Of a DNA stretch of 64,000 nt, positions 6,021 through 43,526 are shown in pieces (positions within the stretch are counted from its first letter, which is position 1; the number at the start of each line of letters is the position of its first letter). The DNA comes from Candidatus Binatia bacterium (GTDB lineage: Bacteria; Desulfobacterota; Binatia; DP-6). The stretch spans positions 78,369-142,368 of the forward strand of contig DATGIZ010000014.1 in NCBI GenBank assembly GCA_035295465.1, read 5' to 3'. Position numbers and translations under genes: made by a program. The notes under the pieces are model-generated. The model made no database searches. It was not told the DNA's origin and saw nothing but the letters and a program-made list of their open reading frames with translations.

Positions 6021-6023
6021 TCG

Positions 6024-8424: not shown

Positions 8425-8514
8425 GATCTCCTCCCTCCGGCCGCGGCGCACCGCGTTGTAGACCAGCCGCCCGGGGGGATCAAAGCCCCTCGTGACCCGA
8501 CGGCCCGCGGTGGT

Positions 8515-16978: not shown

Positions 16979-17080
16979 CCTGCCGGGGGGTTGCCAATCA
17001 CGAGACGACACGGCGAAAAAGCCAGGCGGCACGGCTCAGCACGCCGAGTGCATACGTTCCAGCAGGGAAGGGGGACGCTG

Positions 17081-23989: not shown

Positions 23990-24338
23990 CGGCGGCGACC
24001 GCGACCTGCCGGCGATCTACCGGCGGTTGCCCGTTCCCGCGGCGCGCCTCGCCTCCCCGGCCGCGCGCCGGCGGGGGGCCGCCCTCTTCGCCGAGCACTG
24101 CGCCCTCTGCCACGGCGAGCGCGGCGACGGGCGAGGCGTGCGTCACGAGGGCCTCTCGACCGCACCGCGCGACTTCACCGATCCCGCCTGGCAGCAGCGG
24201 ACGTCTCCGCGGCGGGCCTTCTTCGCGATCCGCGAGGGCGTGCCGGGGACGGCCATGCCGTCCTGGCGGGCACTCGACGACGCGCAGACGTGGGACCTCG
24301 TCGCCCGGGTGCTGTCGTTCGGCGGTCCGAGGTCGTGA
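23934..24338 (+). CDS. monoheme class I c-type cytochrome, probable lipoprotein
   Basis: 134 aa; signal/lipobox-like LASSGCSG; single CALCH haem motif with downstream Met (GTAMPSW); start may be a later TTG/GTG. Confidence 0.65.
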   Translation: MRGLLTGALVTWLASSGCSGGDRDLPAIYRRLPVPAARLASPAARRRGAALFAEHCALCHGERGDGRGVRHEGLSTAPRDFTDPAWQQRTSPRRAFFAIREGVPGTAMPSWRALDDAQTWDLVARVLSFGGPRS

Positions 24339-26620: not shown

Positions 26621-26907
26621 GGGTGCCCGGCCGGGTCGTGGCCGTCGACGGCGACGTCGCCACCGTCGACTTCTGGGGCGTCCGCCGGCCGGTGCGGCTC
26701 GACGTGGTCGACGAAGCGGTGGCGCCCGGCGACTACGTGCTCAACCACGTCGGCTTCGCGATCCGGCGCATCCCACCGCAGGAGATCGCCGAAACCCTCG
26801 CGCTCTACGAGACGCTGCTCGCCGCCGCCGACGGCGACCTCATGGCCGCCGACGTGCGCGGCGAGGTCGCCGGCGCCGGGCGAAGGGACGACCGTGGACG
26901 CTCCTGA
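26611..26907 (+). CDS. hypC: hydrogenase assembly chaperone
   Basis: 98 aa starting MCLGVPG (canonical HypC N-terminus MC[LI][GA][IV]P); overlaps hypF 3' end. Confidence 0.85.
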   Translation: MCLGVPGRVVAVDGDVATVDFWGVRRPVRLDVVDEAVAPGDYVLNHVGFAIRRIPPQEIAETLALYETLLAAADGDLMAADVRGEVAGAGRRDDRGRS

Positions 26908-29061: not shown

Positions 29062-29897
29062 CCGCCGAGCACGTGCACGTGGAGCGCGACGGGGCCGTCG
29101 GCGTGCTCACCCTCGACCGCCGCGAGCGCTTCAACTCCCTCGACGTCGCGACGGCCCGCGACCTCCGCCGCGCGGGGCTGGCCCTCGCACGCGACGAGGA
29201 GGTCCGGGTCGTGCTCCTGCGGGGCGCGGACGGCGTCTTCTGCAGCGGCGCCGATCTCAAGTACGTGCACACCGGCGGCGCGCCCGAGGACCTCGGCTAC
29301 CTCGCCCCCGCGGCGCGCGATGCGCCGGGCGGGTACGCCGAGGCGCTCAAGGAGATCGTCGAGTACCTGCACAGCACGATCTCGGAGATCCGCCGCGCTC
29401 CCAAGCCCTTCGTCGCCGCGGTCGACGGCATCGCCGCCGCGGGCGGCTTCGGGCTCGCGATGGCCTGCGATCTCGTGCTCGCCTCCGAGCGGGCGACGTT
29501 CGAATGGGCCTATCCCCGCACGGGGCTCACCGGCGCCGAGAGCGCGACCTTCTTTCTTCCCCGGCTGATCGGGCTGCGGCGCGCGATGGAGCTCGTGCTC
29601 TTGAGCCCGCGGCTCGACGCGGCGGCGGCGCTGCGGATGGGCCTGATCACCGCCGTGCATCCAACCGCGCGCCTCGACGCCGAGGCGCGCGACCTCGCCG
29701 CCCGGCTCGCCGCCGGGCCTGCCGGCGCCCACGGCATCGCGAAGGCGCTTCTCAACGCGGCCGCCGGCGGCGATCGCCTCGACGCCCACCTCGACCGGGA
29801 GCTCGACTGCCTCGCGCGCGTCGCCGGCGGCCGCGATTTCGCCGAGGGGCTCGCCGCGTTTCTCGCCAAGCGACCGCCGCGCTTCGACGGAGGCTAG
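29055..29897 (+). CDS. enoyl-CoA hydratase/isomerase (crotonase family)
   Basis: 280 aa; crotonase fold motifs (VVLLRGADGVFCSGADLK, AAVDGIAAAGGFGLAMACD). Confidence 0.85.
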   Translation: MLTAEHVHVERDGAVGVLTLDRRERFNSLDVATARDLRRAGLALARDEEVRVVLLRGADGVFCSGADLKYVHTGGAPEDLGYLAPAARDAPGGYAEALKEIVEYLHSTISEIRRAPKPFVAAVDGIAAAGGFGLAMACDLVLASERATFEWAYPRTGLTGAESATFFLPRLIGLRRAMELVLLSPRLDAAAALRMGLITAVHPTARLDAEARDLAARLAAGPAGAHGIAKALLNAAAGGDRLDAHLDRELDCLARVAGGRDFAEGLAAFLAKRPPRFDGG

Positions 29898-29901
29898 CAG
29901 C

Positions 29902-30243
29902 ATGCACGAGTACGGGATCGTGGAAGCCCTGCTCCAGCGCGTGGACGAGGTGGCGCGCGGCCGCGGCGCCACCCGCGTCCGCCGCGTGCGGCTGCGGCTC
30001 GGCGAGCTCGCCGGCGTCGAGCCGACCCTTCTCGCCGCGGCCTACGCCGCCTTCCGCGAGCGCACGTGCTGCGCGGAGGCGGCGCTCGACGTCGAGCCGG
30101 TCGCGGCCCGATGGTCCTGCCCGGGTTGCGCGCGGCCCATCGCCCGCGGCGAGGTCTTGCGCTGCCCCGCGTGCGGGGCGCCCGCGCGGCTGGTCGCCGG
30201 CGACGAGATCGTGCTCTACCGCGTCGAGCTGGAGGTGCCCTGA
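29902..30243 (+). CDS. hypA: hydrogenase nickel incorporation protein
   Basis: 113 aa starting MHEYGI; C-terminal Zn site CPGC...CPAC. Confidence 0.9.
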   Translation: MHEYGIVEALLQRVDEVARGRGATRVRRVRLRLGELAGVEPTLLAAAYAAFRERTCCAEAALDVEPVAARWSCPGCARPIARGEVLRCPACGAPARLVAGDEIVLYRVELEVP

Positions 30244-30947
30244 TGTGCGAGACTTGCGGCTGCGGCGACCCGGCCGTCGTGCCGGTCGACGTCCACGAGG
30301 CGCTGCTCGCCGGCAACGACCGCCAGGCGGCACACAACCGCGAGCACTTTGAAGCCCACGGCGTCCTGGCGGTGAACCTCATGGGGTCGCCCGGCGCGGG
30401 CAAGACGGCGATCCTCGAGGCCACCGCACGGGCCGCCGCCGGGTGGCGGCTGGCCGCGATCACCGGCGACCTCGCCACCGAGCACGACGCGCAGCGGCTC
30501 CGCGCCGCCGGCGTGCCCTCGGTCGGGATCACGACCGGCTCCGCCTGCCACCTCGACGCCGAGCTGGTACACCACGCGCTGCATCGGCTCCCGCGCGAGG
30601 CCGTCGACGTGCTCTTCGTCGAGAACGTCGGCAACCTCGTCTGTCCCGCGATCTACGACCTCGGCCAGGCGGTCAACGTGGTCGCGCTGGCGGTGACGGA
30701 GGGCGAGGACAAGCCGCTCAAGTACCCGGTGATGTTCCGCCGCGCGGACCTCGTGCTGCTCACGAAGATCGACCTGCTCCCGTACCTTCGCGACGTGGAC
30801 CCCGTGCGGATCGAGGACAGCCTGGCGCGCGTGATGCCGCAACCTCGGCTCCTCCCGGTTTCCGCCCTCACGGGCGCCGGGGTCGACGGCTGGCTCGCCT
30901 GGCTCGGGCTGCAGGATCGTTTTCCGCAACGGGGCTTGATGCGATAG
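30243..30947 (+). CDS. hypB: hydrogenase nickel incorporation GTPase
   Basis: 234 aa starting MCETCGCG (Ni-binding N-terminus); P-loop GSPGAGKT; ATG overlaps hypA stop by 1 nt. Confidence 0.9.
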   Translation: MCETCGCGDPAVVPVDVHEALLAGNDRQAAHNREHFEAHGVLAVNLMGSPGAGKTAILEATARAAAGWRLAAITGDLATEHDAQRLRAAGVPSVGITTGSACHLDAELVHHALHRLPREAVDVLFVENVGNLVCPAIYDLGQAVNVVALAVTEGEDKPLKYPVMFRRADLVLLTKIDLLPYLRDVDPVRIEDSLARVMPQPRLLPVSALTGAGVDGWLAWLGLQDRFPQRGLMR

Positions 30948-31005: not shown

Positions 31006-31353
31006 ATGCGCATGGTAGGAAGCTTGGGGTCCCGGGTGATGTTGGCCGGCTGCGTGGCGGTCACCGCGCTCGCGCCGCTGGCGCGCGCGGGCGAGGAGGC
31101 CGGGAAGGCGGTGTTCGAGAAGAGCTGCAAGGCCTGTCACAGCATCGCCGGCGAGGGGGGGAAGATGGCCAACGTCGGCGGGCCGCTCGACGGCGTCGGC
31201 GCCAAGCGCGATGCCGACTGGCTGCGCAAGTACATCCTCGACCCGAAGGCGGAGAAGCCCGACTCGAAGATGCCGAAGGCGAAGCTCACGGATCAGGAGC
31301 TGGCGGACGTCGTCGCCTATCTCGCGACACTGAAGGCCCCAGCCGCGAAGTGA
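31006..31353 (+). CDS. monoheme c-type cytochrome (paralog A)
   Basis: 115 aa; signal peptide; single CKACH; very similar to the protein at 41845..42177 (shared KxCKACHSIAGEGGKMA...VGxKRDADWLRxY...KMPKxKLTDQELxDxVAYLxTLK). Confidence 0.8.
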   Translation: MRMVGSLGSRVMLAGCVAVTALAPLARAGEEAGKAVFEKSCKACHSIAGEGGKMANVGGPLDGVGAKRDADWLRKYILDPKAEKPDSKMPKAKLTDQELADVVAYLATLKAPAAK

Positions 31354-31470: not shown

Positions 31471-32991
31471 ATGACTGACCAAGCACCCGTGCGCGAGGTC
31501 CACCCGAAGGCCCCGGCGCTCACCGGCAACTGGCTGAGCATGGTCGGCATGCTGATCGCCGCCTGCAGCTTCTTCGCCGCCACGGTCCTCCTGACGATCA
31601 ACATGCTGGCTCCCTTCGGGAATCCCTACATGGGGATCCTCGTCTACCTGATCGCGCCGGCCTTCCTGCTGCTGGGGCTTCTGCTCGTGGGCACGGGAGC
31701 GTGGCGCGAACGTCGGCGCCGACGGCGGCTGGCCCCGGGCGTCGTGCCCCAGTTCCCACGCATCGACTTCAACCTGCCTCGCCAGCGCCGCATCGCCGTC
31801 ATCGGCACGGCCCTCGTCCTCGCGTTCCTCCTCGTCACTGCCGTCGGCAGCTACCAAACTTACGAGTACTCCGAGTCCGTCGCGTTCTGCGGGCAGGTGT
31901 GCCACGGCGTCATGCGGCCCGAGTACACCGCCTACCAGAACTCGCCGCACGCGCGGGTGGCGTGCGTCGCGTGCCACATCGGTCCCGGCGCGAGCTGGTT
32001 CGTCCGCTCGAAGGTGTCCGGCGCCTACCAAGTGTATGCCACGCTCACCGACGTGTACCCGCGCCCGATCCCCACGCCCATCGAGCATCTACGGCCCGCC
32101 CAGCAGACCTGCGAGCAATGCCACTGGCCGGCCAAGTTCTACGGCGACGCCGAGCGGGTCTGGCATCACTTCCTCTCGGACGAGCGCAACTCCCCGTGGA
32201 CGATCCGGCTGCTGATGAAGGTCGGCGGCGGCGACCCGACGCACGGCCCCGTGGGCGGCATCCACTGGCACATGAACATCGCCGACGAGGTCGAATACAT
32301 CGCGACCGACGCGAATCGGCAGACGATCCCCTGGGTGCGGATCACCCGGCGCGACGGCACCGTCACGGTCTATCAATCGCAGGATGCCCCGCTCACTCCC
32401 GCGCAGATCGCGGCCGCCGTCCCCCGCCGGATGGACTGCATCGACTGCCACGACCGCCCCTCGCACGATTACCTCGACCCCGCCCACGCGGTGGACATCG
32501 CGATGAGCATCGGCCGCATCGATCCGGCCATTCCGTTCATCAAGAAGGAAGCCGTGGCGGTGCTGGCGGAGAAGTACGCCAGCACCGCCGAGGCGCAAGC
32601 CGCCATCGCCGAGAAGCTGACGACGTACTACGAGACTCGATACGCGGACTTCACGGCCGGGCACCGGGCGATGATCACGCAGGCGATCGCCGGGGTCCAG
32701 GAAATCTACCGCCTCAACTTCTTCCCCGAGATGCACGTCGACTGGAAGGTGTACCCGAACAACATCGGCCACCTCACCGCCCCGGGCTGCTACCGCTGCC
32801 ACGACGGCAACCACGTGAGCGCCGACGGGGAGGTGGTCAAGCACGACTGCGACTCGTGCCACGTCATCCTCGCGCAGGGCTCGGCCGCCAAGCTCCAGCC
32901 CGAGCGGCTCGAGTTCGAGCACCCCGCCGACATCGGCGACCTGTGGCAGCAGATGAGCTGCGACCAGTGCCACACGGGCGGCCCATCATGA
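31471..32991 (+). CDS. ImcH-like inner-membrane seven-heme c-type cytochrome (NapC/NirT-related)
   Basis: 506 aa; three N-terminal TM helices then seven CxxCH motifs (CGQVCH, CVACH, CEQCH, CIDCH, CYRCH, CDSCH, CDQCH). Confidence 0.8.
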   Translation: MTDQAPVREVHPKAPALTGNWLSMVGMLIAACSFFAATVLLTINMLAPFGNPYMGILVYLIAPAFLLLGLLLVGTGAWRERRRRRRLAPGVVPQFPRIDFNLPRQRRIAVIGTALVLAFLLVTAVGSYQTYEYSESVAFCGQVCHGVMRPEYTAYQNSPHARVACVACHIGPGASWFVRSKVSGAYQVYATLTDVYPRPIPTPIEHLRPAQQTCEQCHWPAKFYGDAERVWHHFLSDERNSPWTIRLLMKVGGGDPTHGPVGGIHWHMNIADEVEYIATDANRQTIPWVRITRRDGTVTVYQSQDAPLTPAQIAAAVPRRMDCIDCHDRPSHDYLDPAHAVDIAMSIGRIDPAIPFIKKEAVAVLAEKYASTAEAQAAIAEKLTTYYETRYADFTAGHRAMITQAIAGVQEIYRLNFFPEMHVDWKVYPNNIGHLTAPGCYRCHDGNHVSADGEVVKHDCDSCHVILAQGSAAKLQPERLEFEHPADIGDLWQQMSCDQCHTGGPS

Positions 32992-33819
32992 GAACGCCAG
33001 GATCGTGAGCGTGAAGAGCACGAAGCCGGTCACGACCACGCTGAGGCCCAACAGGCGGCCGAAGTTGCGCAACCAGCGTTCCGGGGGTCGCGTCTCGAGG
33101 TCGCCCAAGCGTCCCGACCGCACCAAGCGCTCGAACTCCAGCGGCCGCTCCTCGCGCAGCTCTTCGCCGCTCACCCGGCCCGTGAAGATGACGAGATCCA
33201 TCGGGAACTTCTCGGGCCGCAGATGGGCGTTGAAGAAGTGGATGGTGAAGATGAACCAGACCGCGAGCAGCGCCTCCTCGGAGTGGACGATCAGTGCCAC
33301 ATTGAACATCCACCCGGGCAGGAACCTCGCGAAGAACTCCGAGAACCACAGCACGAAGCCTGACGTCCCGATGATGAACATGCCCCAGAACACGGCCCAG
33401 TAGTCGAACTTCTCCCAGTAGGTGAAGCGGTCGAAACGCGGCTTCGGTCCGAGGCCCAGAAACCATTTGACGTTCCCGTACAGGTCGACGAGGTCCTTGG
33501 GCTGCGGAACCAGGGACCCGGGCCCCCAGAACAGGCCCCGGCGGCGCTCGACGAGGGCCATCCACCCCACGTGCACCAAGTGGGTGAAGAAGCAGAGCGT
33601 GAGGGCGACCGCCGAGACCTTGTGAAGGAAGAGAATCGTCCCGAGGCCGCCCATCGCCTGCGCCAGGGCCGTCGCCCACGGGGCCCAGTTCAGCTTGATG
33701 GGAAGACCCGTTGCGGCGAGCCCGAGAAAGCTCGCCATCAGCACCCCGTGGAGAATCCTGTCGAAGAGGGAGATCCGCCAGAAGTAGCGACGGCGTGCGC
33801 TGGGGTCCTCCTGGGCCAT
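32986..33819 (-). CDS. dihaem b-type cytochrome membrane subunit (FdnI/HydC/Ni_hydr_CYTB-like; CbcL b-domain-like)
   Basis: 277 aa from MAQEDP (GGAGGGA RBS; alternative ATG 33831 overlaps upstream stop); 4-5 TM helices with paired His (ILHGVLMASF, FLHKVSAVAL, FTHLVHVGW, IVHSEE...IHFFNAHL). Confidence 0.75.
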   Translation of the reverse strand: MAQEDPSARRRYFWRISLFDRILHGVLMASFLGLAATGLPIKLNWAPWATALAQAMGGLGTILFLHKVSAVALTLCFFTHLVHVGWMALVERRRGLFWGPGSLVPQPKDLVDLYGNVKWFLGLGPKPRFDRFTYWEKFDYWAVFWGMFIIGTSGFVLWFSEFFARFLPGWMFNVALIVHSEEALLAVWFIFTIHFFNAHLRPEKFPMDLVIFTGRVSGEELREERPLEFERLVRSGRLGDLETRPPERWLRNFGRLLGLSVVVTGFVLFTLTILAFS

Positions 33820-33830
33820 CGATCCCTCCA

Positions 33831-35027
33831 TCAGCGCCGCCCGCGGCTCTCCCGCAGCGACCGCAAGAGCCACAACACGGTGTGAACGCCGAAGAACACG
33901 AACACGCCGACGAGCAGCATTCTCATCGACAGCGCCACGGCCCAGAGGCCGGGATTGCGCGCGCGGTCGCGGACGTCGGCGTGGGGTCGGTAGGCGACGA
34001 AGTTGACATTGGCCGCCGGATGGCACTTCCGGCAGGTGTCGACCAGGTGCGCGGGCGCGATGGAGGAGCGCGGGTCGGACGCCGGCAGCACCCGGTGCGC
34101 CTCGTGGCAATCGGGACACCGGGCGACCACGGTGAAGCCGAGGCCGGTGATCTGACCGTGGAAGCTGTCGCGGAACGTCGCGCGCGACTCGGTGTGGCAT
34201 GAGCCGCACTCGGAGACGGTGGCGACCTGCCAGCCGGGCGCGGTGACGTTCTGGATGCGATGCGCCCCGTGGCAGTCGATGCAGACCGGCGCGTCGCGCC
34301 GGCCTGCGTGGAGCGCGTCCCCATGGGAGCCTTGCAGGTAGGCGTTCTCGACGCCGGCGTGACACCGCCCGCAGGTCGCAGGGATGTTCGTCCTGAACAC
34401 CTTCGAGTCCGGGTCGTTCGCCGGGAGGATGTCGTGGGCCCCGTGGCAGCTCGAGCAGTTGGCCGCGACCAGGAGCCCCCCGCGGCTGACCGCGCGGCCG
34501 TGGATGGAGTCCATGTAGAGCTGGTACGCGTCGGCCACCGGGATGCCGTGACGTTCCGCAAGCGCACGGTCGCCATGGCAGACACCGCAGGTGCGCGGCA
34601 GGTTGAGCGGGTAGACCGGCGAGGTCGGGTCGGTCACCTTGGCGACGGCGTGCGGCGAGCCGTGGCAGCTCGTACAGGTGGCGGCGTCGGTCCCACCGGC
34701 GGCGCGTGCTCGCCCGTGCACGCTGCGGTCGTAGATGGAGACCACGTCACGATGGCATGCCGCGCACACCTGCGGCCCGAGGTGGGCCGGCGGCTCCTCG
34801 TGCGGCCCCGACACGCCGGCGTGGCAGCTCGTGCAGTCGAGCCCGGCGTGCTCCGACGCGCCGTAGGCGGCGGCGCCGACGAACAGCGAGCGTCCATCCG
34901 GCGCGGTCACCCCCTCCACGCCGTGACAGGCCAGGCACATCTCGTCGTTCTCGCCACCCCGCGCGGGGCGCGCGCCGAGAGCGAGCACGAGCACGGCGGT
35001 CCATACCACGGCACGAGCGGTGGATCG
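33831..35027 (-). CDS. membrane-anchored multiheme c-type cytochrome, 11 CxxCH (paired-CXXCH type)
   Basis: 398 aa from MRSTARAVVWTAVLVLALGA (signal peptide); 11 CxxCH motifs with CxxCHGxH spacing; C-terminal TM helix GLWAVALSMRMLLVGVFVFFGV. Confidence 0.85.
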   Translation of the reverse strand, partial: RSTARAVVWTAVLVLALGARPARGGENDEMCLACHGVEGVTAPDGRSLFVGAAAYGASEHAGLDCTSCHAGVSGPHEEPPAHLGPQVCAACHRDVVSIYDRSVHGRARAAGGTDAATCTSCHGSPHAVAKVTDPTSPVYPLNLPRTCGVCHGDRALAERHGIPVADAYQLYMDSIHGRAVSRGGLLVAANCSSCHGAHDILPANDPDSKVFRTNIPATCGRCHAGVENAYLQGSHGDALHAGRRDAPVCIDCHGAHRIQNVTAPGWQVATVSECGSCHTESRATFRDSFHGQITGLGFTVVARCPDCHEAHRVLPASDPRSSIAPAHLVDTCRKCHPAANVNFVAYRPHADVRDRARNPGLWAVALSMRMLLVGVFVFFGVHTVLWLLRSLRESRGRR

Positions 35028-35047
35028 CATCGTCGCCGTCCCGAACC

Positions 35048-36295
35048 TCACCGCGACGACGGTCCCTGCTCGTCGAGGGAGCGCATCTTGAGGTAGACGA
35101 CGGCGCCCACCACCGCGATCATCGCGAGCGGGATGAGCGCCATCCAGCGCCGGCTCCGCAGCTCCACGAGCGCCTCGTCGCCCGTGTGCGCCGCGTCGGT
35201 CGCGGTCTTCACCCCCGCGTCCGCCATCTTCACCAGCGACGCAGCATCGAACGCGTGGACCTGCGTGCGGGTCTTCACCAGGTCCTCGCGCGCGCTCTGC
35301 AGCGCAGCCTCGGCCTCGCTCACCTCCATGCCGGCGGCGCTGGCGCGCGACAGGGTGCCCTCGGCGACCGATACCGCGTCCTTCAACCGATCGATGCCGA
35401 GCCGCATCTGCTCGGCGGCGGCGTAGCCCGCGCTCTCGGGCGCGTGGCAGCTCACGCAGATCGCGGTGGCGCCCACGCCGAGCATCTCGTCGCTGGTGCG
35501 CATCACGAGGTGGTTGCCGTGACAGGTGACGCATTCGGGCAACCCGAGGCGGTCGAAGGCGGGATGATGCGGGCTCGCAAGGAAGAGATCCTTATTGAAG
35601 GCATGGCACTGCCCGCACACCGCCGCCACCGAGCGCGCCCCCGGCGGGTACGCGCCGTGGTTGCCGTGGCAGTCGTTGCAGGCCGGCGCCGCGACGTCGC
35701 GCTCGACGAGGAGCGTCTGCCCGTGCACGCTGCGCTGGTACTGGGCGAGCTGGTTGGTCGGAATGTGGTAGGCGGCCATATAGCGCGCGTCGGCGTGGCA
35801 GCGGCCGCACGTCTCGGGCACGTTCATCTTGTAGACCGGGCTCGTCGCGTCGCTCGCGGGCAGGATGCCGTGGACGCCGTGGCACGAGACGCAGGTCGCC
35901 ACGTTCGTGTCGCCCTGGCGCAGCCGCTGCCCGTGCACGCTCGTCCAGTAGGTCGCGAGCTGATCGACGGGCAGGCGCGGGTTGAAGCGGCGCATGTAAC
36001 CCTCGTCCGCGTGACATCGGCCGCAGAATTCGGGAACGCGAGCGCGCTCGGGCTTGCCGACGAAGCCCTTGGCCGCGTCCATGGACGACATGTCCGGATC
36101 CTTCGGGTCGCCGCCGTGGCAGTCGGCGCAGGAGAGCCCGGCCTTCGCGTGGACGTCCCGCTTCATACCCTCGACGGGGGGCCCGAGCGGCTCGGGCAGC
36201 TCCTTGTGGCAGTCCACGCAGGTGTCCTCGGCACGGGCCAAGGGGCCGCCGGCGACGAGCAGGAGTATCGCGACGATGACGGCGACCGGTCGCAT
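35048..36295 (-). CDS. membrane-anchored multiheme c-type cytochrome, 9 CxxCH (paired-CXXCH type)
   Basis: 415 aa from MRPVAVIVAILLLVAGGPLARA; nine CxxCH; coiled region then C-terminal TM helix ALIPLAMIAVVGAVVYL; stop 2 nt from cyt b... upstream gene stop. Confidence 0.85.
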   Translation of the reverse strand: MRPVAVIVAILLLVAGGPLARAEDTCVDCHKELPEPLGPPVEGMKRDVHAKAGLSCADCHGGDPKDPDMSSMDAAKGFVGKPERARVPEFCGRCHADEGYMRRFNPRLPVDQLATYWTSVHGQRLRQGDTNVATCVSCHGVHGILPASDATSPVYKMNVPETCGRCHADARYMAAYHIPTNQLAQYQRSVHGQTLLVERDVAAPACNDCHGNHGAYPPGARSVAAVCGQCHAFNKDLFLASPHHPAFDRLGLPECVTCHGNHLVMRTSDEMLGVGATAICVSCHAPESAGYAAAEQMRLGIDRLKDAVSVAEGTLSRASAAGMEVSEAEAALQSAREDLVKTRTQVHAFDAASLVKMADAGVKTATDAAHTGDEALVELRSRRWMALIPLAMIAVVGAVVYLKMRSLDEQGPSSR

Positions 36296-36297
36296 CG

Positions 36298-37368
36298 TCA
36301 GTACGGCTTGAAGTACGCGAGCAGCGTCATCACCACCATGAAGCCGAGCAGGAGCACGCCGCCCGCGGTCACCAGGGGGCTCGGCTCGCCGCGGGCGGCA
36401 CGCCGGTCGAGGAACGGAACGAGGACGAGCAGCCCGAAGACCGCTCCGAAGCCCAAGATGGCCACCTGCTCGCCCTCGAGCCCGAAGAGGCGTGGCGGCA
36501 CGTACTTGAAGCTCTGCGACATGAAGGTGAAGTACCACTCCGGCCGGATCCCGCTCGGCGCGGAGGCGAAGGGGTCCGCCTTCTGCCCGAGCTCCCAGGG
36601 GAAGAACGTCGCCAGCACGATCAGGACGGCGAGCACGGCGAGCCAGACGAGCACCTCGCGCAGCACGAAGTGGGGATAGAAGGGCATGTGGCGCGCCGTG
36701 CGCGCGCTGTCGCCGAGGCGCTCGCTCATGCCGTGAAGCTGGACCAGCGCCAGGTGGACGAGCAGGAGCAGCGTCGTCGCGAGCGGCAGGAGCGCCACGT
36801 GGAATCCGAAGAACCGGGTGAGCGTCGCGCCGCCCACGTTCTCGCCCCCGCGCAGCACGAAGCGCAGGACGGGCCCGACGCCCGGGACCTCCCCCATGAT
36901 GTCGGTGCCCACCTTCGTGGCGAAGAACGCGAGCTGGTTCCACGGCAGGAGGTAGCCCGAGAAGCCGAAGGCGAGCGTGAGCCCGAGGAGCCCGCAGCCC
37001 GTCAGCCAGGTCACCTCGCGCGGCGGCCGGTAGGCTTTCAAGAAGAACACGCTGAACAGGTGGGTGAACACGGCCGCGATCATCAGGTTGGCCGCCCAGG
37101 CGTGCAGCGAGCGCACCAGCCAGCCGAAGCGCACGTGCGCCATGATGAAGCGCACGCTCTCGAACGCCGAGTCCGGCGCGGGGCGGTAGTAGAGCAGCAG
37201 GAGAACGCCGGTCGCCACCTGGACGCCGAACAGGAAGAGGCTGGCGCCGCCGAAGTAGTACCAGATCGAGTGCTCGACGGGCACGAGCTTGTGCGCGAGG
37301 AAGTCCCGCGCCGCCCCGACGCGGAGCCGGTCGTCGAGCCACCTCCCGACGGTGCGCGCCACGCTCAT
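36298..37368 (-). CDS. cytochrome b of a Rieske/cytochrome b (bc-type) complex
   Basis: 356 aa from MSVARTVGRWLDDRL; ATG overlaps Rieske stop (ATGA); cytochrome b/b6 N- and C-domain motifs (HSIWYYFGG, RSLHAWAANLMIAAVFTHLF, HVALLPL, PEWYF). Confidence 0.9.
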   Translation of the reverse strand: MSVARTVGRWLDDRLRVGAARDFLAHKLVPVEHSIWYYFGGASLFLFGVQVATGVLLLLYYRPAPDSAFESVRFIMAHVRFGWLVRSLHAWAANLMIAAVFTHLFSVFFLKAYRPPREVTWLTGCGLLGLTLAFGFSGYLLPWNQLAFFATKVGTDIMGEVPGVGPVLRFVLRGGENVGGATLTRFFGFHVALLPLATTLLLLVHLALVQLHGMSERLGDSARTARHMPFYPHFVLREVLVWLAVLAVLIVLATFFPWELGQKADPFASAPSGIRPEWYFTFMSQSFKYVPPRLFGLEGEQVAILGFGAVFGLLVLVPFLDRRAARGEPSPLVTAGGVLLLGFMVVMTLLAYFKPY

Positions 37369-37808
37369 GCGCGCCGGCTCACCACCACCTGATCGCCGCG
37401 CACCGCCACCTCGAGCGCCTCGAGAGGCCGCGGCGGCGGGCCCGCCACGTTGCGGCCGGTGAGGTCGAAGCGGCCGTTGTGGCACGGGCACCACAGCAGC
37501 TCGAGGTCCTTGCGGTACTGCACCGTGCACCCCAGGTGCGTGCAGACCGCCGAGAACGCCCGCAGCTCGCCGCCCGCCAGGCGCACCACGATCGCGGGCC
37601 GCTCACCGAAGCGCACCACCTTCCCCGAGTCGAGCGGAAAGTCGCGCAGCTGGCCCACGACCGCCGTTCCGACGGCCGCCTCGGGCTGGTCGGCGGGCGT
37701 GACGTAGCGAACGATGGGGTAGAGAAGCACGCCGAGCAGGGAGCCGCTGCCGAGCGAGAGGAGCCAGTTGATGAGCCGCCGTCGCGACAGGCCGTCCGCT
37801 TCCGTCAT
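37365..37808 (-). CDS. Rieske [2Fe-2S] protein, Tat-exported
   Basis: 147 aa; twin-arginine motif SRRRLINWL; Rieske boxes CTHLGC and CPCHNG. Confidence 0.9.
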   Translation of the reverse strand: MTEADGLSRRRLINWLLSLGSGSLLGVLLYPIVRYVTPADQPEAAVGTAVVGQLRDFPLDSGKVVRFGERPAIVVRLAGGELRAFSAVCTHLGCTVQYRKDLELLWCPCHNGRFDLTGRNVAGPPPRPLEALEVAVRGDQVVVSRRA

Positions 37809-37817
37809 GCGCGCTCC

Positions 37818-39785
37818 CTACAGGTTGAACCGCTTCGTCAGCCGGAACACCACGATCGTCGCCCGATAGTCGTTCTGCGGCAGCACGCGCTCCCGGTAGT
37901 CGATCATCCGGAACTCGATTCCCGGCTCGACGAGCGGATGAAGCCAGGTGAGGAACACGCCGCCGTCGACCCGCCGGAGGTCGAAGGCCGTGCGCAGCCC
38001 CGCGCCGGGCTCGAGGCTCGGGCGCAGCGTGTCGTTCGAGTCGACGTAGAACACGTCGGAGCCCGCCGCCCACTTCTGCCCGAGCAGCGAGAAGTCCCAG
38101 CGCAGCGAGCTCGTGAACACGTCCTCGCTGCCCTGCTGCACGGAGAGCGCGCGGTCGTAGAGCGGGCCGACCAGGATGTCGGCGCGGTCGCTCAGATCCC
38201 GCCGGGTGTAGCTGGTCATGAGGCTCAGTCCGGCGAGCGGGGTCAGCGTGAGCGCGACGCCGTTGCCGAAGCTCTGCGCGCTGCCGGCGAAGCTCGCGTT
38301 CTCGCGGCTGTCGGCGATGAGCTGGTAGCTGAGCGACACCCAGTCCCACGGCGCGAGCCGCAGCCCGGCCGCCGCCCGGTTGACGAACGTCAGCACCGCC
38401 TCGCGTCCGGGCAGCGCCGGGATCCGGTTCGGGTCGCCGGGCACGAGCAGCGGATCGTCGATCTGGACGTTCTCGTAGCGCGCCCAGAGGTTCACAGCCG
38501 ACCACGGCCGGTAGTTGAAGCTGCCCACGGCGCCCACCGTGTCGGTCGCGATCTTGTCGCCGCTGAGCGACAGGTTGACGTCGCGGTGGTTGTACCGGAC
38601 GCCGCCTCGCAGCGTGAGGTCCTCGCGCGGCTCGTACTCGAGGTCGCTGGTGACGCTGTGGACGCGGAGCTGGTCGCCGGTCGCCGTGGCGAACGGCCCG
38701 AGCACGCTCTGCTCGGCGATCGAGCCCGACTGCGTGCGCTCGTTGTAGCGGTAGGCGACGTTCAGGAGCACGTCGCGGGTCACCGCCATCGTGCCCCCGA
38801 GGTCGACGATGTGCGTGCTCAGCGCCGCCGAGCCGTGCTGGACGGCGCTCGCGGTGGTGGGGGTCGGCGACGGCGCCGTCGTCGCCGTATACAGACTTTG
38901 CCCCGTGAATCCGAGGGATGCGTGGCTGTAGAAGTAGCCGCCGGTGAGCTCGAGCCAGTCGCCGATCGGGCGGCGCAGCCGCACGGTCGTGGCCGGGATG
39001 TCGAGGTGCTCGTCGCGGGTGGTGTGGTTGGCGAGGAGCTTGAAGCCATCCGTGGGATCGAGGCCCGCCGGGTCGAGGGGATTGCCGAGAGTCAGCTCGC
39101 GATCGACCCGCCGGTACTCCTGCTGCAGCATCACGTCGGTGCCGAGCGCGTGGAAGTCCGTGCCCACGAGCCCGACGTGCGTGGTCATGTCGAGCGGCGC
39201 GGTCACGACGAAGTTGTCGCCCCCGGGGATGAGCACCGTCGAGCTGCCGTCGCCCTGGCGCTGGTAGAGCCGGTAGCCGAGCCGCAGGACGGGCAGATTT
39301 GGGGCGTGGACGGTGAGGTCGACCGTGCCGTCGGTGCGTCGGGTGTTGAACTGGTGCAGGTCGTTGGTCTGCACGTCGCCCGGGACGGGCTTCGCGAACT
39401 CCTCGGGGACCGCGTAGAAATACTGCGAGCGCGTGAACCGCGCGCTCAAGTCGAACCAGCGCCGGTTGGCGGCCGAGAGCGCGAAGTGCGAGACGGGCTC
39501 GTCGCCCGGCGTGTCGACCTCGAGGTGGAAGCGGTCGAGCGGCCCCCCGGGCGCCTTGGCGCGCCCGTCGGTGAGGAAGCTGAACAGCCGTGCGCCCTCG
39601 CGGAAGTTGTAGTCCTCGCGGTACTTGGCGTCGGCCCCGTCGACGTCGACCAGCCGATACCCCGCCGTGGCCGCGCCCTCCAGCGTCCAGCCGCCGAGCA
39701 GCCCCGGGGCGTCGTCGGCGGCCGCGCGCGCCCCTCCCCAGAGCACGGACGCCAGCGCGAGGAGCAGACGCAGCCCCCGGCGCAT
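37818..39785 (-). CDS. putative outer-membrane beta-barrel (MtrB/PioB-like porin partner of a periplasmic multiheme cytochrome)
   Basis: 655 aa from [23 protein letters not shown] (signal peptide); ATG shares 1 nt with upstream stop; Tyr/Gly/Asp/Thr-rich alternating amphipathic pattern throughout, no Cys/haem motifs; immediately downstream of MtrA-like decaheme gene. Confidence 0.65.
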   Translation of the reverse strand: MRRGLRLLLALASVLWGGARAAADDAPGLLGGWTLEGAATAGYRLVDVDGADAKYREDYNFREGARLFSFLTDGRAKAPGGPLDRFHLEVDTPGDEPVSHFALSAANRRWFDLSARFTRSQYFYAVPEEFAKPVPGDVQTNDLHQFNTRRTDGTVDLTVHAPNLPVLRLGYRLYQRQGDGSSTVLIPGGDNFVVTAPLDMTTHVGLVGTDFHALGTDVMLQQEYRRVDRELTLGNPLDPAGLDPTDGFKLLANHTTRDEHLDIPATTVRLRRPIGDWLELTGGYFYSHASLGFTGQSLYTATTAPSPTPTTASAVQHGSAALSTHIVDLGGTMAVTRDVLLNVAYRYNERTQSGSIAEQSVLGPFATATGDQLRVHSVTSDLEYEPREDLTLRGGVRYNHRDVNLSLSGDKIATDTVGAVGSFNYRPWSAVNLWARYENVQIDDPLLVPGDPNRIPALPGREAVLTFVNRAAAGLRLAPWDWVSLSYQLIADSRENASFAGSAQSFGNGVALTLTPLAGLSLMTSYTRRDLSDRADILVGPLYDRALSVQQGSEDVFTSSLRWDFSLLGQKWAAGSDVFYVDSNDTLRPSLEPGAGLRTAFDLRRVDGGVFLTWLHPLVEPGIEFRMIDYRERVLPQNDYRATIVVFRLTKRFNL

Positions 39786-40654
39786 CACTGCTCCAGGAAG
39801 TTCGGATCGACGTTCGATCCGTGGATGGCCACGTGGCAGCGCGTGCAGTCGCGGTAGCTCGGCTGCACGTGGCTCGCGGGCGTGACCGTGTGGCACTCGT
39901 AGCAGAGCTGCGCCACCTGCTGGCGAATCAGGAGGTGGCGGTTCACGCTGCCGTGCGGGTCGTGGCAGCGCTGGCAGCCCTCGGCGAGCACGGCCTCGTG
40001 CTCGAAGACGTAGGGGCCCTCGAGGTCGCCGTGGCAGCGGAAGCAGGTGCGGTTGTTGGCCCCGCGCAGCGCCACCGGGTTGTTGCTCCCGTGCGCGCGG
40101 TGGCAGTCGAGGCAGCCGAGCACGCCCTCGTCGACCTGATGGTGCTCGGGCAGCACGAATTTCGCGCGGATCTCGAGGTGGCAGCCGTAGCAGAGCTTCG
40201 GCGGGTCGGCCTTGAGGAGATGCTCGCCGCGCGCCGCGTGCGGGTCGTGGCAGTCGGTGCACGCCACGGCCGAGGCGGCGTGCTCGCTGCGCCGGAAGTC
40301 GAACCGGTGTTCCTCCCCGCCGTGGCACCCGAGGCAGACCGCGGAGCGCTCGCGCGCCGAGCGCGTGGGGGCGAAGCTCTGGAGCCCCCCGACGCCCTTG
40401 CCGCCGCCCGCCTCGGCGTGCGCCGAGCCCGGCCCGTGGCACGCCTCGCACCCCCGCTGCGACTCCGGCCGCGACTCCTTGGCGAGCGGTGCCGCGTGGG
40501 GCGTCTTGTCGTACGCCTCCGCCACGTCGGCGTGGCAGGCGGCGCAGGTGTCGGAGCCGACGTAGGTGGGCGCCGCGGCCGGGGGCTCGTCGGCCCGCGC
40601 CGCGCCGGCTGCGACCGCGAGCAGCAGCGCCGCGGCGAGGACGGCGCGCCTCAT
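39785..40654 (-). CDS. MtrA/DmsE/PioA-family periplasmic decaheme c-type cytochrome
   Basis: 289 aa from MRRAVLAAALLLAVAAGAARA; ten CxxCH (CAACH, CEACH, CLGCH, CTDCH, CYGCH, CLDCH, CFRCH, CQRCH, CYECH, CTRCH) with MtrA-like CHDPHG/CHxxHGS spacing; ATG overlaps upstream stop. Confidence 0.85.
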   Translation of the reverse strand: MRRAVLAAALLLAVAAGAARADEPPAAAPTYVGSDTCAACHADVAEAYDKTPHAAPLAKESRPESQRGCEACHGPGSAHAEAGGGKGVGGLQSFAPTRSARERSAVCLGCHGGEEHRFDFRRSEHAASAVACTDCHDPHAARGEHLLKADPPKLCYGCHLEIRAKFVLPEHHQVDEGVLGCLDCHRAHGSNNPVALRGANNRTCFRCHGDLEGPYVFEHEAVLAEGCQRCHDPHGSVNRHLLIRQQVAQLCYECHTVTPASHVQPSYRDCTRCHVAIHGSNVDPNFLEQ

Positions 40655-41694
40655 GGCGGGTTGAACCCCGCCGCGTGACGGTGGCAGGGCAGGCAGGAGA
40701 ACGTGTAGTGCCCCTGCGGTCCGCTGCCGTCGGCGCGGTAGAACTTGGTCGTCGTGTGGCAGACCTCGCAAATGCCGGTGCCCGGCTGCGAGGCGCTCGC
40801 GAAGCTCCCGTCGAACTGCCCGAGCACGTTGTCGAAGACGATCGGGACGAGCCCGCCCTGCGAGCGCTCGATCTGGTCGAGGACGAGGTCGCTGTTGTCG
40901 GTGCCGTGCGGGTCGTGGCACTGGGTGCACGGGAACGGCGGCACGCCCGGCGGGGCGTGCGTCAGGTTCGTGTGACAGTCGGCGCAGGCGGGCACCGTGC
41001 GGTGCCCCACCCCCGGCGTGGGCACGACCGCGGCGTGGCAGCCGCTGCAGTCGAAGCTCGCGCTGTGGAGATTGGCCTTGGCGAAGCGCGCCGCTTCCGC
41101 GGTGTGGCAGATCGCGCAGTTCTGCTCGGTCGCCACCGGCTGAAAGCCCGCCTCGTGGTCGTGGCACAGGACGCAGCTCTGCGCGAAGTGCGGCTGCCCG
41201 CGCCCGTCGGCGCGGTAGACCTGCGTGCGCCGGTGGCAGACCTCGCAGAGACCCTTGCCGGGACGCGCGGGATCGGTGAAGCCGCCCGGCGCCGCCCCGC
41301 TCTCGCTGTCGTAGACGATTGGGATGAGCCGCCGCGGTCCGGTGCGGAAGAGGCTCGTGCGGATCAGATGGAGGTTCGGCGAGCCGTGAGGGTCGTGGCA
41401 GCCGATGCAGTTGCGCCGCGGCTTCCCGGGGCGGTTGGCGCCGTGCGGCGGGTGGCGGACCGCGGTGTGGTGCGAGCCGCAGCTCGTGATGATCGCCCGG
41501 TGCCCGACCCCGACCCGCCCCGGCCGGCGGTCCCGGTGGCAGTCCTCGCAGCCGACGCTCGGCGCGTGGCCCCCGGTCGTCGCGCCCAGCGTCGCCTCCT
41601 CGAGGTGGCAGCGCCCGCAAATGCCCGCGTCTGCCGCCACCGCCGGGGCCGTGCGCGCGAGACAGACCATCAGCAGCACCCCCGCCGTGCGCAC
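40651..41694 (-). CDS. periplasmic multiheme c-type cytochrome, 11 CxxCH, internally duplicated
   Basis: 347 aa from GTG (MRTAGVLLMVCLARTAPAVAA signal); 11 CxxCH; two repeated units LCEVCH..YRADG..SCxxCHxHxAGF(Q/N)P. Confidence 0.85.
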   Translation of the reverse strand: MRTAGVLLMVCLARTAPAVAADAGICGRCHLEEATLGATTGGHAPSVGCEDCHRDRRPGRVGVGHRAIITSCGSHHTAVRHPPHGANRPGKPRRNCIGCHDPHGSPNLHLIRTSLFRTGPRRLIPIVYDSESGAAPGGFTDPARPGKGLCEVCHRRTQVYRADGRGQPHFAQSCVLCHDHEAGFQPVATEQNCAICHTAEAARFAKANLHSASFDCSGCHAAVVPTPGVGHRTVPACADCHTNLTHAPPGVPPFPCTQCHDPHGTDNSDLVLDQIERSQGGLVPIVFDNVLGQFDGSFASASQPGTGICEVCHTTTKFYRADGSGPQGHYTFSCLPCHRHAAGFNPP

Positions 41695-41844: not shown

Positions 41845-42177
41845 ATGAGCTCGACGGTACGCACAGTGACGGCCGCCCTGCTCGTCGCGGCGATGCCGCT
41901 CGGCGCGGCAGCGGTGAGCGACGAGACCAAGGCGCTCTACGAGAAGGACTGCAAGGCCTGCCACAGCATCGCCGGCGAAGGTGGGAAGATGGCGAAGCTC
42001 GGCGGAGCGCTCGATGACGTCGGCGTCAAGCGCGACGCGGACTGGCTGCGAGCGTACCTCAAGGACCCCAAGTCGAAGATGCCCGACGCGAAGATGCCCA
42101 AGGTGAAGCTGACCGATCAGGAGCTCGAGGACATGGTCGCGTACCTGCTCACGCTAAAGACGGCGCCTCCCAAGTAG
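41845..42177 (+). CDS. monoheme c-type cytochrome (paralog B)
   Basis: 110 aa from MSSTVRTVTAALLVAAMPLGAAA with AGGAGG RBS; single CKACH; paralog of 31006..31353. Confidence 0.8.
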   Translation: MSSTVRTVTAALLVAAMPLGAAAVSDETKALYEKDCKACHSIAGEGGKMAKLGGALDDVGVKRDADWLRAYLKDPKSKMPDAKMPKVKLTDQELEDMVAYLLTLKTAPPK

Positions 42178-42213
42178 CCCGTTCCGGCAAGCGAATTGCA
42201 ATCCATCGTGGGC

Positions 42214-42930
42214 ATGCGCAGCTTCGGGGCCACGGCCACGGGCTTCCTGCTCGCGCTCGCGGCGTCGGCGGCGGCGGCCGGCACGGGGGCGGTCGCGGGC
42301 ACCGTACGGGTGGAGGGCACGGTCGCCCCGCGCCCTCCCCTGCCCGTCTACAAGCACCATGAGGTCTGTGGCGACGGCGTCCCGGACGACCGTCTGGTGG
42401 TGGGTGGCGCCGGCGGCCTGCGCTACGCGGTCGTCAGCGTGGAGGGGGTGCGCGGCGGGCGGCGGCCCGAACGCGACGTGACGGTCGACCTCGACAACCA
42501 GCGCTGCCGGTTCGAGCCGCACGTCCAGACCGCCGAGGTCGGCCAGTGGCTCGAGCTCCACAACAGCGATCCGATCCTGCACAACGCCGACGCGCGCATG
42601 GGCCCCGACACGATCTTCAACGTGGGCCTGCCGCCCGGTCGTCGGGTGCGCAAACCCCTCGCGCGCGCCGGCCTGGTCACCATAACTTGCGACGTCCGCC
42701 ACACGTGGATGCGCGCGTACGTAGCGGTCGCCGACGATCCCTACCACACGGTGACGGACGCCGACGGCGCGTACGAGATCCGCGACCTGCCGCCGGGACG
42801 GTACACGCTGCGCGTCTGGCACGAGGAGCTGGGAACCCGGGAGCGGCCGATCACGGTGGAGGCCGACAAGACGCTCACCGCGGACGTGAGCTACCCGGCG
42901 CCCGCAGGCGCGCCGGAGGCGCCGCGATGA
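42214..42930 (+). CDS. secreted cupredoxin-like (plastocyanin-type ligand pattern) + CarbopepD_reg-like domain protein
   Basis: about 238 aa; signal peptide; His...Cys-x3-His-x2-Met pattern (LHNSDPILHN ... ITCDVRHTWM) then DGAYEIRDLPPGRYTLRVWHE beta-sandwich; start ATG 42214 or TTG 42196. Confidence 0.6.
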   Translation: MRSFGATATGFLLALAASAAAAGTGAVAGTVRVEGTVAPRPPLPVYKHHEVCGDGVPDDRLVVGGAGGLRYAVVSVEGVRGGRRPERDVTVDLDNQRCRFEPHVQTAEVGQWLELHNSDPILHNADARMGPDTIFNVGLPPGRRVRKPLARAGLVTITCDVRHTWMRAYVAVADDPYHTVTDADGAYEIRDLPPGRYTLRVWHEELGTRERPITVEADKTLTADVSYPAPAGAPEAPR

Positions 42931-43526
42931 TCCGCCTCGTGCTCGTGCTGGCCCTCGCGCTCGCCACGACGGGCGCGCGCGCGGAGGAGGGCGCCGCCGT
43001 GAAGGGCACGATCACCGCCGGGCCGGCGCCGGGGACGCCGGTGGCCGACGCCGTCGTGCTGGTCGACGGCCCGTCGGTGCCGGCCCCGCCGGACGCGCCG
43101 CACGCGACCATCGACCAGCGCAACGAGAGCTTCGTTCCCCACGTGATCGCGATCGCGGTGGGAACCACCGTCGACTTCCCGAACCACGACCCGGTGCTCC
43201 ACAACGTCTACGCCGCTTCGCCGGCCAAGCACTTCGACCTGGGCATGTACGGCGAGGGGGAGTCGCGCAGTGTGCTCTTCGACAAGGCCGGGGTCGTGCG
43301 GGTGGGCTGCAACGTCCATCCGAAGATGGAGGCCTTCGTGATCGTGCACACCAACCCGTGGGCGGCGGTCACCGACGCCCACGGCGCGTACACGATCACG
43401 GGCGTGCCTCCTGGGCACTACACCGTGCGCGTCTGGCACGAGAGCCGGGGCGCCCGCGAGGTGCCGATCACGCTGCGGGCCGGCGAGGTGCTGCCGCTCG
43501 ATCTCCGGCTCGAGCCGGCTCACTGA
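42927..43526 (+). CDS. secreted cupredoxin-like + CarbopepD_reg-like domain protein (tandem paralog)
   Basis: 199 aa; ATG overlaps upstream stop (ATGA); signal peptide MIRLVLVLALALATTGARA; FPNHDPVLHN ... VGCNVHPKMEAF (Cys-x2-His-x2-Met) then HGAYTITGVPPGHYTVRVWHE. Confidence 0.65.
   Translation: MIRLVLVLALALATTGARAEEGAAVKGTITAGPAPGTPVADAVVLVDGPSVPAPPDAPHATIDQRNESFVPHVIAIAVGTTVDFPNHDPVLHNVYAASPAKHFDLGMYGEGESRSVLFDKAGVVRVGCNVHPKMEAFVIVHTNPWAAVTDAHGAYTITGVPPGHYTVRVWHESRGAREVPITLRAGEVLPLDLRLEPAH

Follow-up and report, generated by a model that had tools for sequence, protein, structure and literature searches.

How a bacterium may connect its quinone pool with electron acceptors or donors outside the cell is a question raised by an operon of an uncultured soil bacterium of Candidatus Binatia, in which genes for an outer-membrane porin-cytochrome conduit share one gene row with genes for a Rieske/cytochrome b complex and further membrane cytochromes. 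The operon lies at 32986-41694 on the minus strand of our window, a stretch of 64,000 nucleotides (nt) of contig DATGIZ010000014.1 with a GC content of ~72%. The contig is metagenome-assembled; it is deposited at ENA as ERZ27279679 k141_174036 and carries locus tags VKW76_045xx at NCBI. The preliminary description of this DNA had read its eight genes as one supercomplex across both membranes. Our analysis makes it probable that the region encodes the core of a modular Mtr-type pathway for extracellular electron transfer (EET), with alternative quinol oxidoreductases and with outward flow favoured, as judged from the sequences and structure models described below.

The eight open reading frames (ORFs), numbered g1 to g8 in their order on the minus strand, have the coordinates and lengths given in the preliminary description. 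Junctions from g1/g2 to g7/g8 measure -4, -1, +9, -4, +2, +17 and -1 nt, and the haem-binding motif CXXCH occurs 11, 10, 0, 0, 0, 9, 11 and 0 times per gene (41 in sum), which bears out the earlier count of eight genes separated by overlaps or gaps of no more than 20 nt. A second, independent gene call on the public contig returned the same genes, except that g8 started 4 codons downstream (277 amino acids, aa). The GC content at third codon positions is 0.90-0.97 for each ORF, every product has family matches, and homologues number hundreds to thousands for g1, g3 and g8; because of these features, we read all eight as real genes and not as high-GC ORF noise. A scan for promoters and terminators inside the operon gave no signal above chance, which is weak evidence either way on a single transcript.

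With regard to the outer membrane, the conduit is represented by g2 and g3. The g2 gene (39785-40654; 289 aa, 10 CXXCH) encodes a periplasmic decahaem cytochrome of the MtrA/MtoA/DmsE family, scoring 228.7 bits on TIGR03508 (DmsE/MtrA family; cut-off 192.2). Its best sequence match in the PDB was chain A of 6r2q (E=3.6e-34), which we take to be MtrA, although the database label differs; chain B of the same entry (6r2q_B) we take to be MtrB. The genes g1 and g2 are joined by an ATGA in which the stop of the first and the start of the second overlap, and the stop of g2 shares 1 nt with the start of g3. The adjacency of decahaem and barrel genes, which are co-directional here, is kept in all related loci. 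The g3 product (37818-39785; 655 aa, no haem motif) scored 17.1 bits on the Pfam model MtrB_PioB (PF11854), under the cut-off of 23, so that sequence does not place it in that family, and a few members of the g3 family do have a precomputed PF11854 match. Its AlphaFold2 model, built from 25 homologues, has ~26 long strands and a mean predicted local distance difference test (pLDDT) score of 84.7. A Foldseek search of the PDB with this model ranked 6r2q_B first (E=1.3e-16; template modelling (TM) score 0.69/0.70), followed by TonB-dependent receptors at TM ~0.4. The g3 protein carries a signal peptide and a C-terminal F-x-L, and it contains zero Cys. We therefore predict an MtrB-like barrel of ~26 strands, by its fold wide enough to sheathe a decahaem, and the earlier proposal of an outer-membrane barrel stands. 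An N-terminal CXXC in MtrB marks the metal-reducing Gammaproteobacteria and is uninformative outside that class; it was not used for g3. Compared with Shewanella MtrCAB (6R2Q) and with MtoAB/PioAB, the Binatia genes share the DmsE/MtrA decahaem, the ~26-strand barrel and the adjacency of mtrA and mtrB, and with MtrCAB also an OmcA/MtrC-family decahaem. Identity between MtrB and g3 is ~12% over the structural alignment.

To see which parts of the operon are kept together, related loci were collected by scanning GTDB genomes and Joint Genome Institute (JGI) metagenomes with the barrel alignment, and all proteins of the window were mapped onto them. Fourteen loci that extend for at least 4 kb to either side were counted as well-flanked, and neighbours were judged within ~4-10 kb. 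The triplet g1-g2-g3 is tightly conserved across ~50 loci, which belong mostly to Binatia, with a few metagenome-assembled genomes (MAGs) labelled otherwise. Nearly every well-flanked locus (13/14) also holds an MtrC-like gene, which mostly lies just upstream and in the same direction, so that the order is MtrC-like, g1, MtrA, MtrB (e.g., locus L100). The conserved unit in the relatives thus consists of MtrC-like, 11-haem, MtrA and MtrB genes.

In the window, the MtrC-like gene (17048-19885, plus strand; 945 aa) lies ~13 kb from the operon. This cytochrome, along with a NapC/NirT-like one discussed below, was missed in the preliminary description, and both belong to the same conserved neighbourhood. 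Its product is an OmcA/MtrC-family decahaem that scored 407.8 bits on TIGR03507 (cut-off 209.3), matched PF22113 twice (E=3e-46), has its CXXCH motifs arranged 5+5, and found MtrF (2.8e-19) and OmcA (1.9e-16) in the PDB. Since its homologue adjoins the conduit genes in relatives, the protein is likely the surface partner of g2 and g3. Shewanella MtrC and OmcA are lipoproteins with a lipobox for surface anchoring. A hydrophobic signal is present at the N-terminus of the window's protein, but the region of predicted cleavage shows no Cys of a lipobox, and the same was seen in the homologue of locus L077. The first ~380 residues form a long extension before the first haem motif, and this extension starts Cys-rich. 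The Binatia protein thus differs from Shewanella MtrC in its length of 945 aa, its Cys-rich N-terminal extension and its missing lipobox.

The gene that distinguishes this conduit is g1 (40651-41694; 347 aa, GTG start), which encodes a soluble cytochrome with 11 CXXCH and adjoins MtrA/MtrB in ~50 loci. In Shewanella MtrCAB there is no such 11-haem gene between mtrC and mtrA. About 40 homologues of g1 have Sec-type signal peptides with no lipobox Cys, and we rejected g1 as a surface lipoprotein cytochrome on that ground. Besides the haem motifs, 13 further His are invariant and would permit bis-histidine (bis-His) ligation. The protein is internally duplicated: residues ~95-184 and 255-344 (~90 aa) are 48% identical, each copy carries three CXXCH, and both hold the motif CEVCH..T..YRADG.G. 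Comparison with known cytochromes yielded little. A partial match to the DmsE family (56.8 bits) fell far under the cut-off, and a sequence search of the PDB gave no match. A structure model from 30 homologues (pLDDT 74.6, the five models disagreeing) found nothing significant in the PDB, the best match being MtrA (E=0.09, TM 0.25-0.31). The g1 protein is probably a periplasmic haem wire, an extracellular site being the less probable alternative, and its conservation indicates that it is a family-specific fourth component of these Mtr genes.

Directly past the barrel gene lies a block of three genes for an inner-membrane complex. The g4 gene (37365-37808; 147 aa) encodes a Rieske 2Fe-2S subunit with a twin-arginine (Tat) signal and an N-terminal membrane anchor (PF00355, E=6.7e-14; motifs SRRRLI for Tat, CTHLGC and CPCH). 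Cytochrome b is encoded by g5 (36298-37368; 356 aa), which matched PF00033 (E=4e-48) as well as PF00032 and whose best PDB matches were cytochromes b6 (2e-55). In its layout, the N-terminal half is b6-like and is fused to a C-terminal half that resembles subunit IV, with ligands H89-x13-H103 and H190-x14-H205 and the Qo-site PEWY at 276. Complexes of the b6f type bind haem ci through an N-terminal Cys of cytochrome b; as the N-terminal region of g5 has no Cys, a haem ci of this type was rejected. The g6 product (35048-36295; 415 aa) has a signal peptide, 9 CXXCH and a C-terminal membrane anchor at 384-402, and it gave only marginal matches in the PDB. In all relatives that hold the block, g6 follows g4-g5, on either side of the Mtr genes, and g6 is presumed to be the c-subunit. 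Motifs and domain matches show a complete Rieske/cytochrome b core, encoded together with this multihaem subunit.

A comparable combination is known from the ext cluster of Geobacter, in which we take ExtMNOPQS to be the Cbc6 complex. Porin, Rieske, cytochrome b and multihaem genes stand in one cluster in both cases. The Geobacter cluster, extHIJKLMNOPQS, comprises the porin ExtI, cytochromes, the Rieske protein ExtO, the cytochrome b ExtP, the membrane protein ExtQ, and 10- and 12-haem cytochromes (PMC5877670). ExtI has been implicated in selenite and tellurite reduction, and what Rieske/cytochrome b complexes do when they have multihaem c-subunits, as in this cluster, is still uncharacterised (PMC5877670). 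The two clusters differ in that ExtI is a 45-kDa porin unrelated to MtrB, and in that cytochrome b is split into ExtP and ExtQ whereas it is fused in g5. In addition, g5 scored 205.9 bits on the NCBIfam model ExtP (cut-off 290) and the ExtM model reached 16.6 bits (cut-off 800), neither being an equivalog-level match, and no rhodanese or selenoprotein is found in the Binatia cluster.

This resemblance bears on the idea that electrons from the conduit go to a non-metal substrate, soluble or colloidal, at the surface, such as selenite or tellurite, iodate, or compounds like dimethyl sulfoxide. Reductions of this kind have been reported for the ext cluster of Geobacter and for the Dms and Mtr systems of Shewanella. 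It would be consistent with g5 being about as similar to ExtP, from a selenite/tellurite operon, as to cytochrome b6, with the place of g2 in the DmsE family, and with the role of ExtI in selenite/tellurite reduction (PMC5877670). Iodate reduction through Mtr/Dms is also reported. However, the cluster holds no molybdoenzyme, rhodanese or ExtI-type porin, and the ExtP and ExtM scores fall under their cut-offs; we regard a non-metal substrate as very improbable.

The operon ends with a second pair of membrane cytochrome genes. The g7 gene (33831-35030; 399 aa) encodes a c-type cytochrome with 11 CXXCH and a C-terminal anchor (transmembrane segment 371-389); at 30% identity g7 and g6 are paralogues, each with one C-terminal transmembrane helix. 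Its neighbour g8 (32986-33831; 281 aa, ~5 transmembrane helices) belongs to a family of >7000 members. The g8 protein itself scored 16.6 bits on PF01292 (Ni_hydr_CYTB), under the cut-off of 30.1, while 20 of 23 close homologues match this model (best E=8e-10), and H28, H70, H183 and H198 are invariant within transmembrane segments. A profile search of solved structures returned nothing for g8 at E<=1, and an hhalign comparison with the HyaC-like cytochrome b of the window gave E=0.13. Because of the Pfam matches of its homologues and the His pattern, our best reading of g8 is a dihaem cytochrome b of the FdnI/HydC superfamily. With this, the component assignments of the preliminary description hold: MtrA-like decahaem, barrel, Tat-Rieske, bc-type cytochrome b, two anchored multihaem cytochromes and, as the best reading, an FdnI/HydC-like dihaem b.

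In CbcL, MtoC and MtrH, a multihaem c-domain is fused to an FdnI/HydC-like b-domain, and the genes often lie in mtrAB/mtoAB clusters (PMC6295460, PMC4245776, PMC5566968). Likewise, g7 and g8 combine a multihaem c-part with a putative FdnI/HydC-like b-part near mtrAB. They differ in being separate genes with a 1-nt overlap, and hence do not form the single polypeptide that defines the CbcL/MtoC/MtrH fusion; g7 moreover has its own C-terminal anchor. By analogy of domain make-up, we would liken g7-g8 to a split CbcL/MtoC-like module, g7 being the c-part. The separate c- and b-genes agree with the earlier suggestion of such a module at the 3' end, and MtoC/MtrH beside mtrAB/mtoAB are already known (PMC6295460, PMC4245776). 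The pairing of a g7-like with a g8-like gene is a widespread two-gene module: it stands alone in Acidobacteria MAGs, and it also occurs in Rieske/cytochrome b/multihaem clusters without Mtr genes in the 7 kb fetched per side.

Do the eight genes then form a conserved unit? Among the well-flanked loci, Rieske/cytochrome b was found in 3/14, a NapC-like gene in 4/14, a monohaem cytochrome c in 6/14 and g7-g8 in 0/14. In the closest relatives, L016 and L077 (barrel identity 88-91%), a six-gene operon ends after g6 and is followed immediately by convergent NapC-like, cytochrome c and MtrC-like genes. Relative to these two, the window has g7-g8 (32986-35030) and an ~11-kb hydrogenase/hyp island (19899-30947) as extras, with synteny otherwise kept; g7-g8 sits between g6 and the NapC-like gene, and the island between the MtrC-like and monohaem cytochrome c genes. 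The place of the Rieske/b/9-haem block varies as well: it comes after the barrel in the window, L016 and L077 and before g1 in L003, L004, L022 and L028. These comparisons show that the eight genes are three separately occurring modules and not a conserved unit. As regards recurrence of the full eight-gene order, the g1-g3 unit is kept across relatives, but the whole order is not, its modules occurring apart.

A block of the g4-g8 type was also seen in L095 and L097 without Mtr genes in the 7 kb fetched per side. At positions 1-9721, L095 (ENA ERZ27248265 k141_4782520) holds two divergent Rieske/cytochrome b pairs and three multihaem cytochromes. Two successive pairs of multihaem and Ni_hydr_CYTB genes and then a two-component system are also present, and the locus resembles a large inner-membrane cytochrome island.

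The preliminary description had further held that known Mtr/Pcc conduits are not fused to Rieske/cytochrome b. This is refuted by the Zixibacteria RBG-1 cluster (PMC3903129), the Geobacter ext cluster (PMC5877670) and a locus in a Nitrospinota MAG. Its companion statement, that known Rieske/cytochrome b complexes with multihaem partners have no porin-cytochrome pair, does not stand either. In RBG-1, Castelle et al. (2013) described an Mtr cluster with MtrA and MtrB homologues, the Rieske/cytochrome b pair PetAB, two monohaem cytochromes and several multihaem cytochromes, for which a place in the periplasm or inner membrane was predicted (PMC3903129). Compared by its published description, this cluster has essentially the same architecture as the Binatia operon (Mtr, multihaems and Rieske/b). 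It differs in belonging to another phylum, in reportedly lacking homologues of extracellular cytochromes, whereas the Binatia family has an OmcA/MtrC-type decahaem, and in that an FdnI-like module is not mentioned. In the Nitrospinota locus (L012), whose barrel is 26% identical to g3 and scores above the MtrB_PioB Pfam cut-off, co-directional genes encode an MtrC-domain cytochrome, MtrA, MtrB_PioB, a multihaem cytochrome, Rieske, cytochrome b6, subunit IV and two more multihaem cytochromes.

One could ask whether the adjacency is simply genomic packing, g4-g6 (with or without g7-g8) being a general quinol:cytochrome c oxidoreductase that serves oxidases or N-oxide reductases. The L095/L097 blocks, the g7-g8 pair that stands alone in Acidobacteria and the 11/14 well-flanked Mtr loci with no nearby Rieske/cytochrome b would fit packing, as would the fact that g7-g8 and the hydrogenase island are presence/absence differences relative to loci at 88-91% identity. 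Yet the g3/g4 junction measures 9 nt with no terminator-like site, and the juxtaposition occurs in at least two Binatia orders, Nitrospinota, RBG-1 and Geobacter (there with another porin), which is hard to explain by chance. We thus consider packing improbable. That Rieske/b and Mtr genes meet repeatedly and independently (two Binatia orders, Nitrospinota) argues for a real functional link, and the absence of Rieske/b from most relatives shows this link to be optional.

Genes beside the operon add further candidate partners. A NapC/NirT/NrfH-like membrane cytochrome (31471-32991, plus strand; 506 aa, 3 N-terminal transmembrane helices) is convergent with g8, with a 6-nt overlap. It matched PF03264 (29.5 bits, cut-off 24.1) and NrfH (E=2.9e-11), and its 6 haems and its length of 506 aa set it apart from tetrahaem proteins of the CymA type. 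A NapC-like gene lies beside the operon also in L016, L077, L008 and L032, and its product is a candidate third quinol dehydrogenase. Shewanella differs in relying on the tetrahaem CymA where the Binatia window has Rieske/b, the split CbcL-like pair and the 6-haem NapC-like protein. In Rhodoferax, two cymA genes and mtrH occur in one mtr cluster (PMC4245776, PMC5566968, PMC6295460). Two class I monohaem cytochromes c flank the operon on the plus strand: one at 31006-31353, with a signal peptide (PF00034, E=3e-15; kept in L016 and L077), and the other at 41845-42177 (PF00034, E=6.5e-13), divergent from g1 across a 150-nt intergenic region, with a homologue beside the cluster in 6/14 well-flanked loci.

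On the far side, an uptake-type membrane-bound [NiFe] hydrogenase (19899-23448, plus strand) comprises small subunit, large subunit and cytochrome b genes (TIGR00391, 414.6 bits; PF00374, E=6e-231; PF01292, E=2.4e-26). Together with the hyp maturation genes that come after them, these genes lie between the MtrC-like gene and the monohaem/NapC-like genes. The hydrogenase starts 13 nt past the MtrC-like stop, and since this short gap holds GGAGG, the two are probably co-transcribed; a surface cytochrome that shares its transcript with a hydrogenase looks unusual. No match to the hydrogenase was found in any related locus mapped. In the window, the enzyme is a candidate electron donor to the quinone pool.

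Taken together, the components would be compatible with the following route. The g2 decahaem would thread the g3 barrel, with the MtrC-like decahaem on the surface side, and g1, perhaps with the two flanking monohaem cytochromes c, may carry electrons across the periplasm. Three quinone-interacting modules are encoded (g4-g6, g7-g8 and the NapC-like cytochrome), and we infer that they serve as alternative links by which electrons enter or leave the quinone pool on their way from or to the conduit, and not as parts of one fixed supercomplex, as had been proposed earlier. Geobacter uses ImcH, CbcL and CbcBA at different acceptor potentials, and the three Binatia modules may possibly be used in a similar way. 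Net flow would most likely start at quinol and end outside the cell, on Fe(III), Mn(IV) or humic acceptors, possibly reversibly, and the adjacent uptake hydrogenase is a possible donor. Outward flow is favoured because the MtrC-family surface cytochrome is conserved and has the hydrogenase beside it.

The opposite direction was also considered. In an inward pathway of the Mto/Pio type, Fe(II) or minerals would be oxidised at the surface, and electrons would pass from MtrAB through the monohaem cytochromes c downhill to a terminal oxidase, and also uphill to the quinone pool by way of Rieske/b and/or the FdnI-like module. Such uphill flow has a parallel in the pet operon of Acidithiobacillus. 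Class I monohaems flank the operon and occur in 6/14 loci, and MtoD, which is the monohaem cytochrome c in mto operons, belongs to this class too (PMC5566968). In L101, the cluster has a cbb3 oxidase at a distance of ~5 kb, and the window start probably holds heme-copper oxidase genes. Members of the CbcL/MtoC and CymA families are found in iron-reducing as well as iron-oxidising organisms (PMC6295460), and cytochromes b of the FdnI/HydC type have a quinone-reducing role in their parent enzymes (PMC4245776). Furthermore, for the RBG-1 cluster, which is similar, Castelle et al. preferred oxidation on the ground that extracellular cytochrome homologues were reported to be lacking (PMC3903129). 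That ground fails in Binatia, however, where an OmcA/MtrC-family decahaem is conserved, and the uptake hydrogenase directly after the MtrC-like gene suggests a donor on the cell side. To our knowledge, MtoAB and PioAB systems have no MtrC. Inward uptake is in our view unlikely, though the strongest of the alternatives, and outward or bidirectional flow is distinctly the more probable when set against a dedicated oxidation pathway.

Nonetheless, our preferred reading of a modular, mainly outward pathway needs to be interpreted with caution, as several observations weigh against it. Rieske/b is missing within ~4-10 kb from 11/14 well-flanked loci and g7-g8 from all of them; the link is therefore facultative, and the operon may be a recent local fusion. 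Blocks of the g4-g8 type also exist with no Mtr genes in 7 kb per side, and the g7-g8 pair exists alone. As to direction, the class I monohaems and the cbb3 oxidase near the L101 cluster agree just as well with a Mto-like role in the oxidation of Fe(II). Chains of bis-His multihaem cytochromes usually have lower potentials than Rieske centres, and for this reason outward flow through g4-g6 is energetically less obvious. Finally, a lipobox is missing from both the MtrC-like protein and g1, so surface attachment in the Shewanella manner is not supported.

Other features of the window were noted in passing. Past the divergent monohaem cytochrome c, two tandem genes (42196-43526, plus strand) encode secreted proteins of ~200-244 aa that carry CarboxypepD_reg-like domains; a marginal match to plastocyanin/azurin was seen for one of them (E=4e-4, at the 21.2-bit cut-off), and the pair is kept in L004, L016 and L077. 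From ORF sizes and N-terminal sequences, heme-copper oxidase subunits at 20-2575 (plus strand) and a succinate dehydrogenase-like set at 2642-6020 are apparent, which suggests that the organism is also an aerobe. Between the MtrC-like region and sugar-metabolism genes, a 457-aa secreted protein is encoded at 14801-16174 (minus strand), with no Pfam match and no counterpart there in L077.

With respect to earlier work, the pairing of Mtr with Rieske/b and the presence of CbcL-type genes in mto/mtr clusters are already known. The Mtr survey of Baker et al. makes no mention of Rieske or cytochrome b (PMC8805035), and our literature search for Binatia or Binatota with Mtr, multihaem cytochromes or iron found no relevant description. 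What is new is an 11-haem Mtr component fused in one operon with a Rieske/b6/9-haem block and a split CbcL-like pair; for this phylum, we found no report of EET.

How Mtr-type conduits are wired to the quinone pool outside Shewanella is poorly known, and the loci described here form a natural comparison set, with an Mtr core that stands without an inner-membrane module, with a NapC-like one, with Rieske/b, or with all three including the CbcL-like pair. This variation in modules could guide heterologous reconstitution. A bolder idea, which we offer tentatively and think rather doubtful, is that in some Binatia, and independently in Nitrospinota and Zixibacteria, the Rieske/b6-type complex with its 9-haem c-subunit is dedicated to minerals, as a "complex III for minerals". 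Such a complex would run a Q-cycle and pass electrons via the 11-haem wire to MtrCAB, with the split CbcL-like and NapC-like modules as lower-potential bypasses, in a mineral respiration driven by H2, the link to H2 being the apparent co-transcription of the MtrC-like and uptake hydrogenase genes. Shewanella respiration based on CymA is not known to conserve energy at quinol oxidation; if the idea is true, mineral respiration in these bacteria would conserve energy at precisely that step. It would also place H2-driven mineral respiration in a phylum described, in the literature that we found, only for methylotrophy. Independently of this, the modular pathway predicts a capacity for EET, possibly fuelled by H2, in Binatia, which are present in many of the soil and sediment metagenomes that we scanned, and if the link between Binatia and Mtr is real, it would bear on the cycling of iron and manganese in soils.

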